Under the pieces are notes generated by a model, which was not told the origin of the DNA, searched no databases, and worked only from the letters and a program-made list of their open reading frames with translations. Positions 58,034 to 61,289 of a stretch of DNA of 64,000 bases are shown in pieces (the stretch's first letter is position 1; the number at the start of each line of letters is the position of its first letter). The position numbers and the translations under genes are program-made. Source of the stretch: a phage. The stretch lies in sequence record OZ346167.1. One strand, given 5' to 3'.

Positions 58034-58462
58034 ATGAGAGATGAAGTATACAAATCACAACTTGGTATGAGTTTAGGAACTGCACAGAACAGGCTAGTAA
58101 AAGATTTGCTATTTGATTTTATATGTAAAACAAATCAAAATAAATGTTTTCAGTGCGGGAAAGAAATGACTAGAGATGATTTCTCTATTGAGCATAAGAC
58201 TCCGTGGAGACATAGTGAAAATGCAAAAGAACTTTTCTTTTCACTAGATAACATTTCATATAGCCACATACACTGTAACTCAAAAGCAACAAGACCAAAA
58301 CAGATTGGTGAAAGGAAGTACACACCAATTAAACATGGTACAGTTTCTGGTTATAGAAGAGGGTGCAGATGTGAGGCTTGTAGGCTTTCTAAAAATGCTG
58401 AAGGGCGTAAATACTATAATTCAGAAAGACGCAAAGAAAAGTACTTAAGAAATGGTACATAG
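58034..58462 (+). CDS. HNH endonuclease inside the tRNA array
   Basis: CFQCG...SIEHKTPW...HIHCN HNH/zinc-finger signature. Confidence 0.65.
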   Translation: MRDEVYKSQLGMSLGTAQNRLVKDLLFDFICKTNQNKCFQCGKEMTRDDFSIEHKTPWRHSENAKELFFSLDNISYSHIHCNSKATRPKQIGERKYTPIKHGTVSGYRRGCRCEACRLSKNAEGRKYYNSERRKEKYLRNGT

Positions 58463-58468
58463 GGTTTT

Positions 58469-58544
58469 GGGGTGTTAGTTTAGACGGGTAAAATACTGGA
58501 TTGTCTCTCCTGAGCCGCGAGTTCGATTCTCGCACACCTCGCCA
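58469..58544 (+). tRNA. tRNA, probably Asp (anticodon GTC); anticodon stem imperfect
   Basis: acceptor GGGGTGT/ACACCTC, T-arm GCGAGTTCGATTCTCGC. Confidence 0.5.
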
Positions 58545-58696
58545 ATTTTGAGAGGGCTATTTAACCCCTCCCTTAAAGAGTTCTTACGAGTATTCTTTAA
58601 AGGAGCAGAAGACCAAATTCAGCAAGTACGTATGATATTTTCAAGCCAATTTAATTTTGAAAAAATTTAAAACTTGGTCTGGCTCAACAAATTTAC

Positions 58697-58976
58697 AGAA
58701 GACCGTTTACAGCAAAACTTAAACAATCTATTTCTCCGGTAAAGAAAAGGCGAAGGTTCGATTCCTTCACTCGGCAGATGTCGAGTTGGTGTAATGGTAG
58801 CACTTAAGATGATAAACAACGGTCTGGTAATTATCTTTGTAGATAAGTTATTAAGCTTACCTGTGAGTATGCGACCACAAAGGGTGAAAGGGTAAATTCT
58901 AGATTTAAACCCAAAAAGGCACATCGCTACAGACCTTAAGCAAGTCTGGGTAGCTTATCTACAAAGATAATTTAAT
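58697..58976 (+). ncRNA. Structured spacer element with tRNA-fragment-like subdomains (T-arm + acceptor 3' strand, then acceptor 5' strand + D-arm) and a 15-bp long-range stem; candidate small stable RNA or permuted/degenerate tRNA
   Basis: CGAAGGTTCGATTCCTTC-ACTCGGC..GTCGAGT-TGGTGTAATGGTAGCAC; TATCTTTGTAGATAAG pairs with CTTATCTACAAAGATA. Confidence 0.4.
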
Positions 58977-59052
58977 GGAAGTGTAGCAGAATGGTGATGC
59001 GGCAGACTTTTAATCTGACAGGCGATGGGTTCGAATCCCTCCACTTCTACCA
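58977..59052 (+). tRNA. tRNA-Lys (anticodon TTT)
   Basis: anticodon loop CTTTTAA; covaries with paralog at 60623. Confidence 0.65.
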
Positions 59053-59056
59053 ATAT

Positions 59057-59133
59057 GGTTCAGTCGCAGATAAGGTAATGCAAGGGTCTCATAAGCCCTA
59101 TGAATGTGGGTTCGATTCCCATCTGAACCTCCA
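59057..59133 (+). tRNA. tRNA with CAT anticodon (Met/fMet or Ile2)
   Basis: acceptor GGTTCAG/CTGAACC, loop CTCATAA. Confidence 0.65.
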
Positions 59134-59135
59134 AT

Positions 59136-59210
59136 TGTGGGTTAGCATAAATGGTAATGCAAACGGCTGATAACCGTTAGAAGAGGGTTCGATACCCTCA
59201 CCTACAACCA
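59136..59210 (+). tRNA. tRNA-Ile (anticodon GAT)
   Basis: anticodon arm AACGG-CTGATAA-CCGTT, T-arm GAGGGTTCGATACCCTC. Confidence 0.7.
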
Positions 59211-59224
59211 CTTTCAATAAAGTT

Positions 59225-59253
59225 GTTGACATTGAGATGTGACTACTTTATAG
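59225..59253 (+). promoter_or_regulatory. Strong sigma70-like promoter (TTGACA-N17-TATAGT) inside the tRNA array
   Basis: consensus hexamers and spacing. Confidence 0.6.
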
Positions 59254-59458
59254 TAACCTTAGTTTTCGTTGCGTAGCGTCTATTTTGCAAATTTAAAATA
59301 AATGCAAACGACAATGTTTTTCTGGCAGTAGCTTGATAGGCTAAACACCAGTGAGGTCTTCCAATCCCTCATCAAAGAATTTGGCGTACTAGCCCACGGT
59401 ATGATTAATAAAGTGGGCATCTTTAAGGGCTTTCTAAGAGAGTCTTTAAAGATAATTA

Positions 59459-59540
59459 CGGGGCGTATCTCAGCGGTCTTCTAAACCGCCGTTAACCGAG
59501 TAAGTGGAGTATGCGGGTTCGAGTCCTGCCGCCTCGACCA
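59459..59540 (+). tRNA. Atypical tRNA-like gene, possibly tRNA-Arg (anticodon TCT) with aberrant D region and insertion
   Basis: 7-bp acceptor pairing, T-arm GCGGGTTCGAGTCCTGC, hairpin GCGGT-CTTCTAA-ACCGC, 82 nt. Confidence 0.4.
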
Positions 59541-59689
59541 ATTTAGTTAGCAGATTGCTTAGACGACCTTATCGGGTCTCCGTGTAAGGAGGTGGTCTGT
59601 ATCTCATGTTTTCCAGAACATGTAAATAATCTGAGAAGGGGCTTTACAGTGTTGAGATAATACGGTAAGCTTCGAATTATAGTTTTAAT

Positions 59690-59760
59690 AGGGGTGAGCT
59701 ATGGCAGCAATAGAGTCTCCAAAATTCTTGATTAGAGTTCGAATCTCTACACCCCTGCCA
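59690..59760 (+). tRNA. tRNA-Trp (anticodon CCA)
   Basis: acceptor AGGGGTG/CACCCCT, loop CTCCAAA. Confidence 0.65.
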
Positions 59761-59774
59761 GAACAGGTGCTTGT

Positions 59775-60179
59775 ATGAAACTTTGTAGAAAATGTTCTCA
59801 AGAAAAGCCTTTAAGCTGCTTTCATAAAAGAGGTAATGGCTATCAGTCTGCTTGTAAAGATTGTAAAGCTAAGTACTCAGCAAAGAGATACAAAGAAGAC
59901 CCTACTTATAAAGCAAAAAGAAAAGTTAGGGCAAAATATGACAAAAAGAGGAACAGAGAGTTCCTTAGTAGATATAAAAAGTTTTGCAAATGCAGAATAT
60001 GTGGCGAATCTGAGCCAGTAGCTTTGGATTTTCATCACTTAGACCCTAAAGAGAAAGATTTTGCTCCAAGCAATCTTAAAACTTACTCTAGAGGCACTAT
60101 TAAGCGTGAAGTCCGTAAGTGTGTTGTGCTTTGTTCAAACTGTCATAGGAAAGTTCATGCAGGACTGTTAAGTATTTAA
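59775..60179 (+). CDS. HNH endonuclease inside the tRNA array
   Basis: CRKC...CKDC zinc finger, LDFHHLDP, CSNCHRKVH; paralog of 60876..61289. Confidence 0.7.
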   Translation: MKLCRKCSQEKPLSCFHKRGNGYQSACKDCKAKYSAKRYKEDPTYKAKRKVRAKYDKKRNREFLSRYKKFCKCRICGESEPVALDFHHLDPKEKDFAPSNLKTYSRGTIKREVRKCVVLCSNCHRKVHAGLLSI

Positions 60180-60182
60180 CAG

Positions 60183-60270
60183 TCTTATTAGGGGTAGGTA
60201 GCGGCTAATGGCAGCCAAACAGTCTTGAAAACTGTTGCCACTGTAGAGATACGGTGAGGGTTCGACTCCT
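60183..60270 (+). tRNA. tRNA-Ser (anticodon TGA), class II
   Basis: 88 nt, anticodon arm ACAGT-CTTGAAA-ACTGT, long variable arm; CCA not encoded. Confidence 0.65.
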
Positions 60271-60437
60271 TTACTTACCGCCTAATAAGATTTAAAGCCA
60301 AGCTTCATTCGGATGTTGCTTTGGTATCCCTCGTGTATTGTCGTACACACTGATAAAGCACCTAGTAGGTGTCACGGAGAAGAGATAATATCAAGCTCTC
60401 CAAAGGTTCTAGTCACCGGATTAAACAAGACTATGCA

Positions 60438-60460
60438 AAGACCTAAATAGGTCTTTTTAG
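60438..60460 (+). terminator. Terminator-like hairpin
   Basis: AGACCTAAATAGGTCT + TTTT. Confidence 0.5.
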
Positions 60461-60537
60461 AGGGCTTCTAAGGTTATTACAGCTTGTTGTGGAACCTTGT
60501 TGCTTAGGTTCTTAGAAGTTCTCTAAAAAGATTTAAT

Positions 60538-60615
60538 GGGAGATTGACGGTAATTGGTAAACCTACCATCCTTAGAAGTTGGTGTTTGAGGGTTCGAATC
60601 CCTTGTCTCCTACCA
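60538..60615 (+). tRNA. tRNA, anticodon TAG (Leu) by manual fold, short variable loop
   Basis: acceptor GGGAGAT/GTCTCCT, T-arm GAGGGTTCGAATCCCTT. Confidence 0.5.
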
Positions 60616-60622
60616 AATTAAT

Positions 60623-60698
60623 GCAGGTGTAGCAAAATGGTTATGCGGCTGACTCTTAATCAGTAAGACGATGGGTTCAATTCCCTCCACCTGTACCA
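60623..60698 (+). tRNA. tRNA-Lys (anticodon CTT)
   Basis: paralog of 58977 tRNA with compensatory stem changes; loop CTCTTAA. Confidence 0.6.
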
Positions 60699-60704
60699 GA
60701 CATC

Positions 60705-60780
60705 GGGGTCATAGTTTATATGGTTAAAATTCGAGTTTTGCAAACTTGGGAACTGAGTTCAATTCTCAGTGACTCCACCA
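60705..60780 (+). tRNA. tRNA-Ala (anticodon TGC)
   Basis: loop TTTGCAA, T-arm CTGAGTTCAATTCTCAG. Confidence 0.65.
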
Positions 60781-60786
60781 ATTAGT

Positions 60787-60861
60787 GCATCCATAGTTTA
60801 AACGGGAAAATTACAGTCTTCCAAACTGAGGTTGAGGGTTCGATTCCCTCTGGATGCTCCA
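60787..60861 (+). tRNA. tRNA-Gly (anticodon TCC)
   Basis: acceptor GCATCCA/TGGATGC, loop CTTCCAA. Confidence 0.7.
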
Positions 60862-60875
60862 AATTAAGGTGTGAT

Positions 60876-61289
60876 ATGAAAATATGCAGTACTTGCAGAA
60901 TACCAAAAGATGAAAGCTTATTCCATAAGAATAAGAACAAGAAAGATGGTCTTCAAAGTCAATGCAAAGACTGTGCAAGACTTCGTGATGCAAAGAGTTA
61001 TCAAGCAAATGATAAAAGGAAAGAGGCTATTAAAAGCACTCGTAACTTCAAGAGAGAGTATAACAAGACTCTAGCTAGAAGGTACAAAGCTTTATGCAAA
61101 TGTCATATATGTGGTGAGAAAGAACCAGTTGCATTGGATTTACACCATACAGACCCTTCCCAGAAAGATTTGAATACTGCATCACTTTATTCATACTCCA
61201 CAAAAAGATTAAAAGATGAAATCAGAAAGTGCATTGTCTTGTGCGCTAACTGTCACAGAAAAGTACATGCTGGTATCATAAAAGTTTAA
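60876..61289 (+). CDS. HNH endonuclease inside the tRNA array
   Basis: CSTC...CKDC, LDLHHTDP, CANCHRKVH. Confidence 0.7.
   Translation: MKICSTCRIPKDESLFHKNKNKKDGLQSQCKDCARLRDAKSYQANDKRKEAIKSTRNFKREYNKTLARRYKALCKCHICGEKEPVALDLHHTDPSQKDLNTASLYSYSTKRLKDEIRKCIVLCANCHRKVHAGIIKV

Follow-up and report, generated by a model that had tools for sequence, protein, structure and literature searches.

Why should the tRNA gene cluster of a phage be interrupted by genes for nucleases, and what have these genes done to the tRNA genes around them? The question is raised by the tRNA array at positions 57425..63554 (plus strand) of sequence record OZ346167.1, in a 64,000-nucleotide stretch of phage DNA (hereafter the window) that sequence comparison places among the Felix O1-like phages of the genus Felixounavirus. 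The array comprises 25 tRNA genes called by ARAGORN, all on the plus strand, with matches to the Rfam tRNA model (used as a second scan, gathering score 29), and is interrupted by five protein genes: three for HNH endonucleases, here termed HNH1, HNH2 and HNH3, one for a DUF7338 protein and one for a DUF7217 protein. Its neighbours in relatives are a vWFA/DUF2828 gene on one side and, on the other, a small ORF followed by the large terminase gene. Positions 57400-63600 are matched by 316 phage records, the nearest of which are Salmonella and E. coli Felixounavirus myophages at ~95-98% identity, and most relatives cover ~77% of the query, corresponding to an array minus the three HNH genes.

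We compared the array with 20 related loci from Felixounavirus, Suspvirus and Mooglevirus (21 arrays with the window's own) and counted full-length matches to each HNH gene among the 316 array-sharing records. The three HNH ORFs belong to two unrelated HNH families and are most probably free-standing homing endonuclease genes that have colonised the short spacers of the Felix O1-like tRNA operon and spread selfishly. Their presence correlates with allele replacement of the adjacent tRNA gene and with frequent local recombination, whereas the order of the tRNA genes has remained unchanged.

HNH genes and the tRNA genes beside them

An earlier note on this DNA, made from the letters alone, had placed HNH endonuclease ORFs at 58034, 59775 and 60876 and taken the latter two for paralogs. 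Both statements hold. All three proteins match PHROG HNH families and have intact catalytic and zinc-binding motifs, the pattern CxxC...HH...N...CH..H being readable in the translations; HNH2 and HNH3 are 47% identical (E 4e-44), and HNH1 is unrelated to either beyond the motif (E 0.16). All nuclease matches in Pfam and PHROGs were to HNH families and none was to the GIY-YIG family. NCBIfam has no family for any of the three, and a PDB sequence search returned no match for HNH1 and only a weak one for HNH3, to the HNH domain of LtrA (E 0.023). We also considered and rejected a defence-system identity, as the PADLOC matches are at the level of the motif only (e.g. HNH1 against the HNH domain of Septu PtuB, E 2.8e-5). 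The note had allowed that the ORFs might be inactive pseudogenes; they are intact in their carriers and evolve under purifying selection, with dN/dS values of 0.06-0.14 for HNH1, 0.04-0.08 for HNH2 and 0.08 for HNH3.

HNH1 (58034..58462, plus strand) encodes 142 aa with the motif CFQCG...SIEHKTPW...LDNISYSHIHCN, matches phrog_23251 ('HNH endonuclease', E 3.9e-68) and lies between tRNA-Tyr and tRNA-Asp(GTC). Breakpoints and the allele table identify this tRNA-Asp (58469..58544, plus strand) as an HNH1-linked allele. Together, HNH1 and tRNA-Asp make up a replaced block (58012-58544) that begins just past the CCA of tRNA-Tyr and ends with that of tRNA-Asp; HNH1-less genomes have at this place a 5-6 nt spacer and a tRNA-Asp that is 63-69% identical to the window's. 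Among the 21 arrays, the window-type allele is found in 7/7 carriers of HNH1 and in 0/14 non-carriers. The same linkage is seen collection-wide: tRNA-Asp genes with at least 92% identity to the window's occur in exactly 23 phage records, the very 23 of the 316 that have full-length HNH1, and are always adjacent to it. Both alleles retain the cloverleaf and 11 of the 17 stem pairs are compensatory, so that neither allele has lost its tRNA structure. The nearest outside relative of the window-type allele (82% identical) belongs to the unrelated Seunavirus NINP13076, where it is directly preceded by an HNH1 homolog (44% aa identity); the tRNA array of NINP13076 also holds a member of the HNH2/HNH3 family, and that of a Justusliebigvirus contains another HNH1 homolog (53% aa identity).

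In the anticodon loop of the HNH1-linked tRNA-Asp, UUGUCUC, the anticodon is immediately followed on its 3' side by a pyrimidine, at a position that is normally occupied by a purine in tRNAs. The anticodon stem of the window's gene contains a U-U mismatch (G-U in radambza and mistaenkt), and the Seunavirus allele has the usual loop CUGUCAC.

HNH2 (59775..60179, plus strand; 134 aa; phrog_2255, E 1.5e-45; motif CRICG...DFHHLDP...CSNCHRKVH) lies just 5' of tRNA-Ser(TGA). It forms a block (59684-60180) with a tRNA-Trp(CCA)-like gene of 71 nt (59690..59760, plus strand), which makes up the 5' part. This gene is atypical, being called by ARAGORN and having no Rfam tRNA match at E<=1. In place of the block, HNH2-less genomes have a different tRNA-like element of 84 nt, also with CCA in its anticodon loop. 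Full-length HNH2 was found in 23 of the 316 records, and all 23 cover the query from base 1-2, Trp-like element included; among Ounavirinae records we found none with the Trp-like element but without HNH2.

The 84-nt element of the empty sites (3779-3862 in locus L002 and 4360-4443 in L001) folds into a cloverleaf whose acceptor stem has 8 bp and whose anticodon loop has 9 nt; it has a weak tRNA-Sec-like Rfam match (23 bits) and no ARAGORN call, and is unannotated in both loci. Somewhat upstream of HNH2 lies another non-canonical tRNA-like element, of 79 nt and with a TCT anticodon loop (59459..59537, plus strand; Rfam tRNA 31.7 bits). It has no obvious D-arm and is identical in radambza; its place is taken by a canonical tRNA-Arg(TCT) in S19cd, Ro111lw, SeKF_63 and the phages of Suspvirus and Mooglevirus. 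The insertion point of the HNH genes of the Felix O1 ORF45 type is just 3' of this TCT element.

HNH3 (60876..61289, plus strand; 137 aa; phrog_2255, E 2.4e-40; motif CHICG...DLHHTDP...CANCHRKVH) is the ortholog of Felix O1 ORF47, which occupies the same site and shares 98.5% aa identity with it. The insertion is a clean one of ~420 bp (60868-61289) in the spacer, 6-7 nt long, that separates tRNA-Gly from tRNA-Thr, and the HNH3 stop codon falls 1 nt short of tRNA-Thr; the empty sites of relatives read AATTAAT, AATAAT or AACAAT. Full-length copies are present in 15 of the 316 records. One tRNA-Thr allele accompanies HNH3 or its remnants in 8/8 cases, compared with 6/12 non-carriers. In contrast to HNH1 and HNH2, for which no degenerate copies were seen in the sample, HNH3 can be followed through stages of decay. 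The SFPB copy is frameshifted by one additional nucleotide, and in ST11 all that is left of the gene is 126 nt from its interior, with partial tRNA copies on either side, 51 nt of the 5' part of tRNA-Thr and 20 nt of the 3' part of tRNA-Gly (the whole at 6445-6652 in locus L019). In BPS15Q2, the tRNA-Thr beside HNH3 is a chimera of both alleles with the crossover in the conserved T-arm; its acceptor stem is mismatched and weakened, with a predicted folding energy of -15.4 versus -21.4 kcal/mol.

Thus, the earlier view of the HNH genes as insertions into the tRNA array is borne out by block boundaries at tRNA ends and by the empty sites of relatives. No record among the 316 carries all three. 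Altogether, the 21 arrays contain seven distinct HNH insertion sites, each between tRNA genes or tRNA-like elements. Five of these are occupied by members of a single family that are 34-58% identical (HNH2, HNH3, Felix O1 ORF44 and ORF45, and nataliec gp46), and HNH1 and the Michonne-type HNH represent separate families. Synonymous divergence of the HNH genes among carriers within the genus (0.7-1.0) is several-fold above that of two resident genes of the array (0.2-0.3), which fits horizontal movement among a wider gene pool. Of the features by which homing genes are recognised, sporadic presence with intact empty sites and linked flanking sequence are both in evidence, as are, for HNH3, degenerate copies.

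These observations suggest the following course of events. The HNH genes would be part of the tRNA precursor transcript, on which each would be translated from a ribosome-binding site of its own. Upon co-infection with an HNH-less relative, the enzyme would cut or nick the DNA of that relative in or beside the adjacent tRNA gene, and recombinational repair off the carrier genome would copy in the HNH gene together with its flanks ('intronless homing') and so favour its inheritance. The carrier itself could be protected in either of two ways: the HNH3 insertion splits the tRNA-Gly/tRNA-Thr junction, and the mobile blocks of HNH1 and HNH2 would bring along a strongly diverged neighbour allele that still folds as a tRNA (tRNA-Asp and the tRNA-Trp-like gene, respectively). 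The expected outcome is selfish spread, allele replacement and heavy recombination inside the array, with the order of the tRNA genes kept.

Gene order, recombination and alternative explanations

Whatever their HNH content, all 21 arrays from the three genera have their tRNA genes in the same order, and the variation among them consists of presence or absence only, affecting the genes for Glu, Tyr, Arg(TCT), Trp, Ser(TGA) and Arg(ACG). Phage adrianh has none of the window's three HNH genes, and its array is that of the window except for the Trp-like gene. This collinearity bears directly on the model put forward in the earlier note, according to which shuffling of the array by the endonucleases had produced tRNA fragments and the paralogous pairs Lys TTT/CTT, Leu CAA/TAA and Gln TTG/CTG. 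The Lys and Leu pairs are indeed the two most similar in the array (82% and 75% identity), for which reason they are probably old duplicates by sequence, but the Gln pair, at 59%, is at the array median and no more alike than random tRNA pairs. All three pairs are present in each of the 21 arrays, the HNH-free ones included, and so predate the current HNH insertions. Nor did we find true tRNA fragments in the window: a short-word BLAST of the tRNAs of all 21 arrays against its gaps gave a sole match, an 18-nt T-arm stretch inside a known tRNA-like element, and the only extra tRNA-like signals are the TCT element described above (59459-59537) and one of 22 bits at 58719-58769. Real scars, namely the ST11 remnant with its flanking tRNA fragments and the chimeric tRNA-Thr of BPS15Q2, are found in relatives only. 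Given the collinear order, the universal pairs and the lack of tRNA fragments in the window, shuffling is unsupported, and we consider it very improbable as the origin of the duplicate isoacceptors.

Presence or absence of a tRNA gene may also come about away from the HNH genes, which again speaks against shuffling by the endonucleases. The window lacks tRNA-Arg(ACG) at 61593-61627; Felix O1, wV8 and others carry this gene after tRNA-Leu(CAA). The missing unit is bordered by a near-identical 'CCA ATTT..AGAGGCTATTTA' that is found 3' of both tRNAs, and its loss or gain through recombination between such short repeats at tRNA 3' ends would explain the pattern.

What does vary is the combination of alleles. 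Within the genus, most tRNAs are at least 96% identical, but tRNA-Asp, Ile, Leu(TAG), Ala and Thr each come as two deeply diverged alleles that are 58-78% identical to one another. All four gametes were seen in 10/10 pairs of these five biallelic loci, including Leu(TAG) and Ala, which are ~170 bp apart. The two alleles of tRNA-Leu(TAG) are unrelated, with 58-60% identity.

Several points weigh against homing as the explanation. The Pfam models HNH, HNH_2 and related ones match all three proteins at 16-19 bits, below their gathering score of 21-23. Most of the analyses were made on 21 arrays, the database-wide check covering the linkages of HNH1 with tRNA-Asp and of HNH2 with the Trp-like gene. 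The proposed target sites are read from linkage and block boundaries, and cleavage, nicking and homing are predictions. Furthermore, the DUF7338 module, which encodes no nuclease, has the same tRNA-bounded pattern of presence and absence, so modules can evidently be exchanged at tRNA flanks without an endonuclease of their own. Finally, the diverged alleles of tRNA-Ile, Leu(TAG), Ala and Thr are found in many genomes without an adjacent HNH gene; hence the allele dimorphism is not due to the present-day HNH genes alone.

Some of these points could be turned into an argument that the HNH ORFs are passive cargo, moved by ordinary homologous recombination at the tRNA flanks, with the nuclease being irrelevant and the allele linkage reflecting inheritance as a block. 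The DUF7338 module, which shows cross-genus exchange as well (see below), the free recombination between all pairs of biallelic tRNAs and the predicted rather than observed HNH cleavage would all suit such a view. It would, however, leave unexplained the strong purifying selection on proteins with intact catalytic motifs, the recurrence of two unrelated HNH families in the tRNA arrays of unrelated phages, the filling of seven independent tRNA junctions mostly by one radiating family, the cycle from intact to frameshifted to remnant copies seen in relatives, and the absolute linkage of HNH1 with its tRNA-Asp in the midst of an otherwise freely recombining array. We therefore regard passive carriage as distinctly unlikely. 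Purifying selection would also fit HNH proteins that served the phage, either as packaging partners of the terminase, like those of HK97-like phages, or by stimulating the amplification or exchange of tRNA genes against tRNA-cleaving host defences, as shown for SegB of T4 and T6. In relatives, the large terminase gene does follow shortly after the array, and SegB-driven amplification of tRNA-Tyr has been found to overcome Septu (PMC13096335). However, each HNH gene is missing from >90% of the close relatives, some of which have none, and this excludes an essential role in packaging; the conserved adjacency to the terminase gene in all relatives that marks the HK97-type HNH proteins is likewise lacking, and between the HNH genes and the terminase gene there are 2.5-6 kb of DNA with numerous tRNA and protein genes. 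As there is no tandem tRNA amplification in the window either, a domesticated function of whichever kind seems most improbable, and selfish homing remains the reading that we favour.

A mutualistic variant deserves mention. The blocks of HNH gene and tRNA allele might benefit the phage if different tRNA alleles escaped different tRNA-cleaving defences of the host and the homing endonucleases spread the escape alleles; the two-allele polymorphisms of tRNA-Asp, Ile, Leu(TAG), Ala and Thr and of the Trp-like and Arg(TCT)-like elements may then be kept for this reason. The unusual UUGUCUC anticodon loop of the HNH1-linked tRNA-Asp is a hint in this direction. We think it unlikely that this is so, but if true, the array would be a nuclease-driven, fast-reassorting anti-defence locus, which would extend the SegB/Septu case to HNH families and to the swapping of alleles instead of their amplification.

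Resident protein genes and other features of the array

The earlier note had also described a 185-aa membrane-protein gene within the array as an unexplained cargo. The gene (61637..62194, plus strand) is there, beyond position 61289 where the region treated in that note ends, and 'unexplained' is a fair description, but nothing shows that it is a cargo of the HNH genes. Its product matches Pfam DUF7338 over residues 1-184 (E 4.9e-60; 202.7 bits versus a cut-off of 27) and phrog_2143; there is no NCBIfam family for it. The AlphaFold2 model (pLDDT 89.5) has one long N-terminal helix (residues 2-33), assigned as transmembrane, ahead of a domain of helices and beta-sheet, and has no fold match among solved structures. 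The gene exactly fills the interval between tRNA-Leu(CAA) and tRNA-Gln(TTG), and is missing from CRP22 and both Mooglevirus loci (absences named: CRP22, SFPB and Michonne). The window's copy is closer to those of Suspvirus (93.5-94.1% nt identity, dS 0.32) than its flanks are (73-85% for the flanking genes, dS 1.04 for the DUF7217 gene), which indicates a recent exchange between the genera. The DUF7338 gene thus appears to be a separate, tRNA-bounded accessory module, resident and exchangeable in Felixounavirus and Suspvirus and presumably swapped by recombination at the conserved tRNA flanks.

Homologs of DUF7338 are found in 557 phage records. In the T4-like lineages JS98, RB16 and STML-198, they lie 240-900 bp downstream of tRNA genes. 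The protein is no universal companion of tRNA genes, however, as the distant homologs in phiAS5, FBKp24 and tabernarius have no tRNA neighbours. Some GenBank records label it a holin. We found no holin family among its matches in Pfam, PHROGs and NCBIfam and no fold match, and reject this identity; the gene is not beside the endolysin gene in the Felix O1-like group and only the distant homolog in phiAS5 abuts a lysozyme gene. As a guess of low confidence, DUF7338 could be an envelope-associated accessory acting, for example, in phage exclusion or in the modulation of lysis.

The second resident protein gene, which the earlier note had not mentioned, encodes a DUF7217 protein of 244 aa when read from its ATG (62646..63380, plus strand; Pfam DUF7217, E 1.4e-88; phrog_2114) and lies between tRNA-Phe and tRNA-Ser(GCT). 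It is present in 20/20 complete arrays from all three genera, with 81-98% aa identity, and has weak coiled-coil-type matches to tape-measure and ZorA-like profiles. A longer ORF with a GTG start (62583) overlaps tRNA-Phe, and this GTG is probably not the real start.

Some of the tRNA genes are unusual. The first tRNA-Met(CAT) (57677-57753) was called by ARAGORN and has no Rfam tRNA match at E<=1, yet is 97-100% conserved in all 21 arrays; its Felix O1 ortholog has a low Cove score of 28.9 (PMC3185647). The three tRNAs with Leu anticodons (TAG, 60538-60615; CAA, 61540-61617; TAA, 62281-62359) are identified as such by the anticodon alone. They are only 78-79 nt long and therefore without the long variable arm that is typical of bacterial tRNA-Leu; the tRNA-Leu of T5 has 85 nt. 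The 432 bp between tRNA-Asp and tRNA-Lys (58545-58976), a length that is constant in the relatives examined, contain no convincing gene; they include the sub-threshold tRNA-like match at 58719-58769 mentioned above and an 85-aa minus-strand ORF that is annotated as hypothetical gene 48 in wV8. The Rfam scan of the array found no RNA families other than tRNA, giving tRNA and weak tRNA-like matches and nothing else.

A consensus scan for promoters and terminators gave a total number of sites no higher than in shuffled sequence, so that placement alone makes individual sites suggestive. A promoter-like site is predicted just 5' of the first tRNA gene (57369..57398, plus strand) and a terminator-like hairpin just past the end of the array (63719-63736). 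The best promoter-like site of the region (59226-59254, plus strand; TTGACA, 17 nt, TATAGT; 11/12 matches) is predicted inside the array, just 3' of tRNA-Ile, and may allow the downstream half to be transcribed from a second start. Immediately ahead of the array is a gene (55844-57259) for a protein with DUF2828 and a vWA-like DUF7788, which in relatives goes by the name of 'RNA-binding protein' or 'vWFA protein'. Its location beside an array with odd tRNA-like elements brings to mind proteins of the Ro60 type, whose partner RNAs are tRNA-like; a search for such an identity by sequence in the PDB returned no match.

Comparison with known systems

The closest functional parallel to the HNH genes is SegB of phage T4, whose gene is part of the tRNA cluster of that phage. 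The enzyme cleaves at the 3' ends of tRNAs, and in crosses its gene is inherited with a frequency of nearly 100%, carrying neighbouring tRNA genes along (PMC2330249). As set out there and in another study (PMC13096335), SegB likewise has a free-standing gene among phage tRNA genes, presumably co-transcribed with them, whose ORF ends directly against the next tRNA gene, as HNH3 does 1 nt from tRNA-Thr, and which spreads with the surrounding tRNA genes and is absent from relatives. Its cleavage at tRNA 3' ends matches the boundaries of the window's blocks at tRNA CCA ends. SegB homologs are associated with tRNA genes across many phages, and amplification of tRNA-Tyr by SegB defeats Septu (PMC13096335). 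There are differences, too. SegB belongs to the GIY-YIG superfamily and has no sequence relationship to the window's HNH genes; its cleavage and homing have been shown experimentally, where those of the HNH enzymes are predicted; and a nuclease paired tightly with one replacement tRNA allele is not described for SegB in the portion of the report available to us (PMC2330249).

Phage T5 also has endonuclease genes in its tRNA cluster (PMC2330249). The T5 genes hegA, hegC and hegD (F-Tfl enzymes) are HNH-superfamily genes located between the tRNA genes of a lytic coliphage, and the tRNA-like stable RNAs annotated alongside them parallel the non-canonical tRNA-like elements of the window. Their proteins are larger, with ORFs of ~580-680 nt, and no significant similarity to the window's genes was found: in a tblastn comparison with T5 positions 22-52 kb, HNH1 and HNH2 had no match at E<0.05 and HNH3 matched hegA over 65 aa (E 0.04), in the motif only. 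HegA resembles only the Michonne-type HNH of the relatives (E 1.4e-10), which is absent from the window. SegF, SegG and MobE of T4 have their genes between conserved ones and act on the adjacent gene in relatives that lack the endonuclease gene, with co-conversion, sporadic distribution and mosaic flanks (PMC2988022; PMC2790892), a manner of spread that the window's genes would share. The targets are protein-coding there, whereas in the window they would be tRNA genes, and the protective variant would be a whole alternative tRNA allele.

Within the Felix O1 genome (NC_005282), ORF44, ORF45 and ORF47 are annotated as HNH genes, and the first two belong to the HNH2/HNH3 family and occupy other tRNA junctions. 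Felix O1 is without HNH1 and HNH2, and the window is without ORF44 and ORF45. The Felix O1 genome paper counted six HNH genes and did not analyse their relation to tRNA genes (PMC3185647); the linkage between HNH and tRNA genes is not described in the comparative Felixounavirus paper (PMC8300805) or in the Sf14 tRNA paper (PMC12482277).

The basic finding is thus an ordinary one, as homing endonuclease genes are established residents of the tRNA clusters of T4 and T5 and the HNH genes of Felix O1 have been annotated since 2010. Added here are the seven tRNA-junction sites, the radiating HNH family, the absolute pairing of an HNH gene with a tRNA allele, which recurs in an unrelated phage group, and the recombination that reassorts tRNA alleles of genes ~170 bp apart. 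We found no description of this pairing and recombination pattern in the searchable literature and regard both as useful additions. Felix O1-like phages are in wide use in Salmonella diagnostics and biocontrol. Owing to its mosaic nature, the tRNA region is unsuitable for their phylogeny or typing. If confirmed by experiment, the pattern described here would make these phages a tractable system for studying how selfish nucleases shape the tRNA repertoires of phages and whether the co-carried variant tRNAs act against tRNA-targeting defences of the host. In kind, the HNH genes of the window are a known type of element, working like SegB and the T5 enzymes and drawn from different families.

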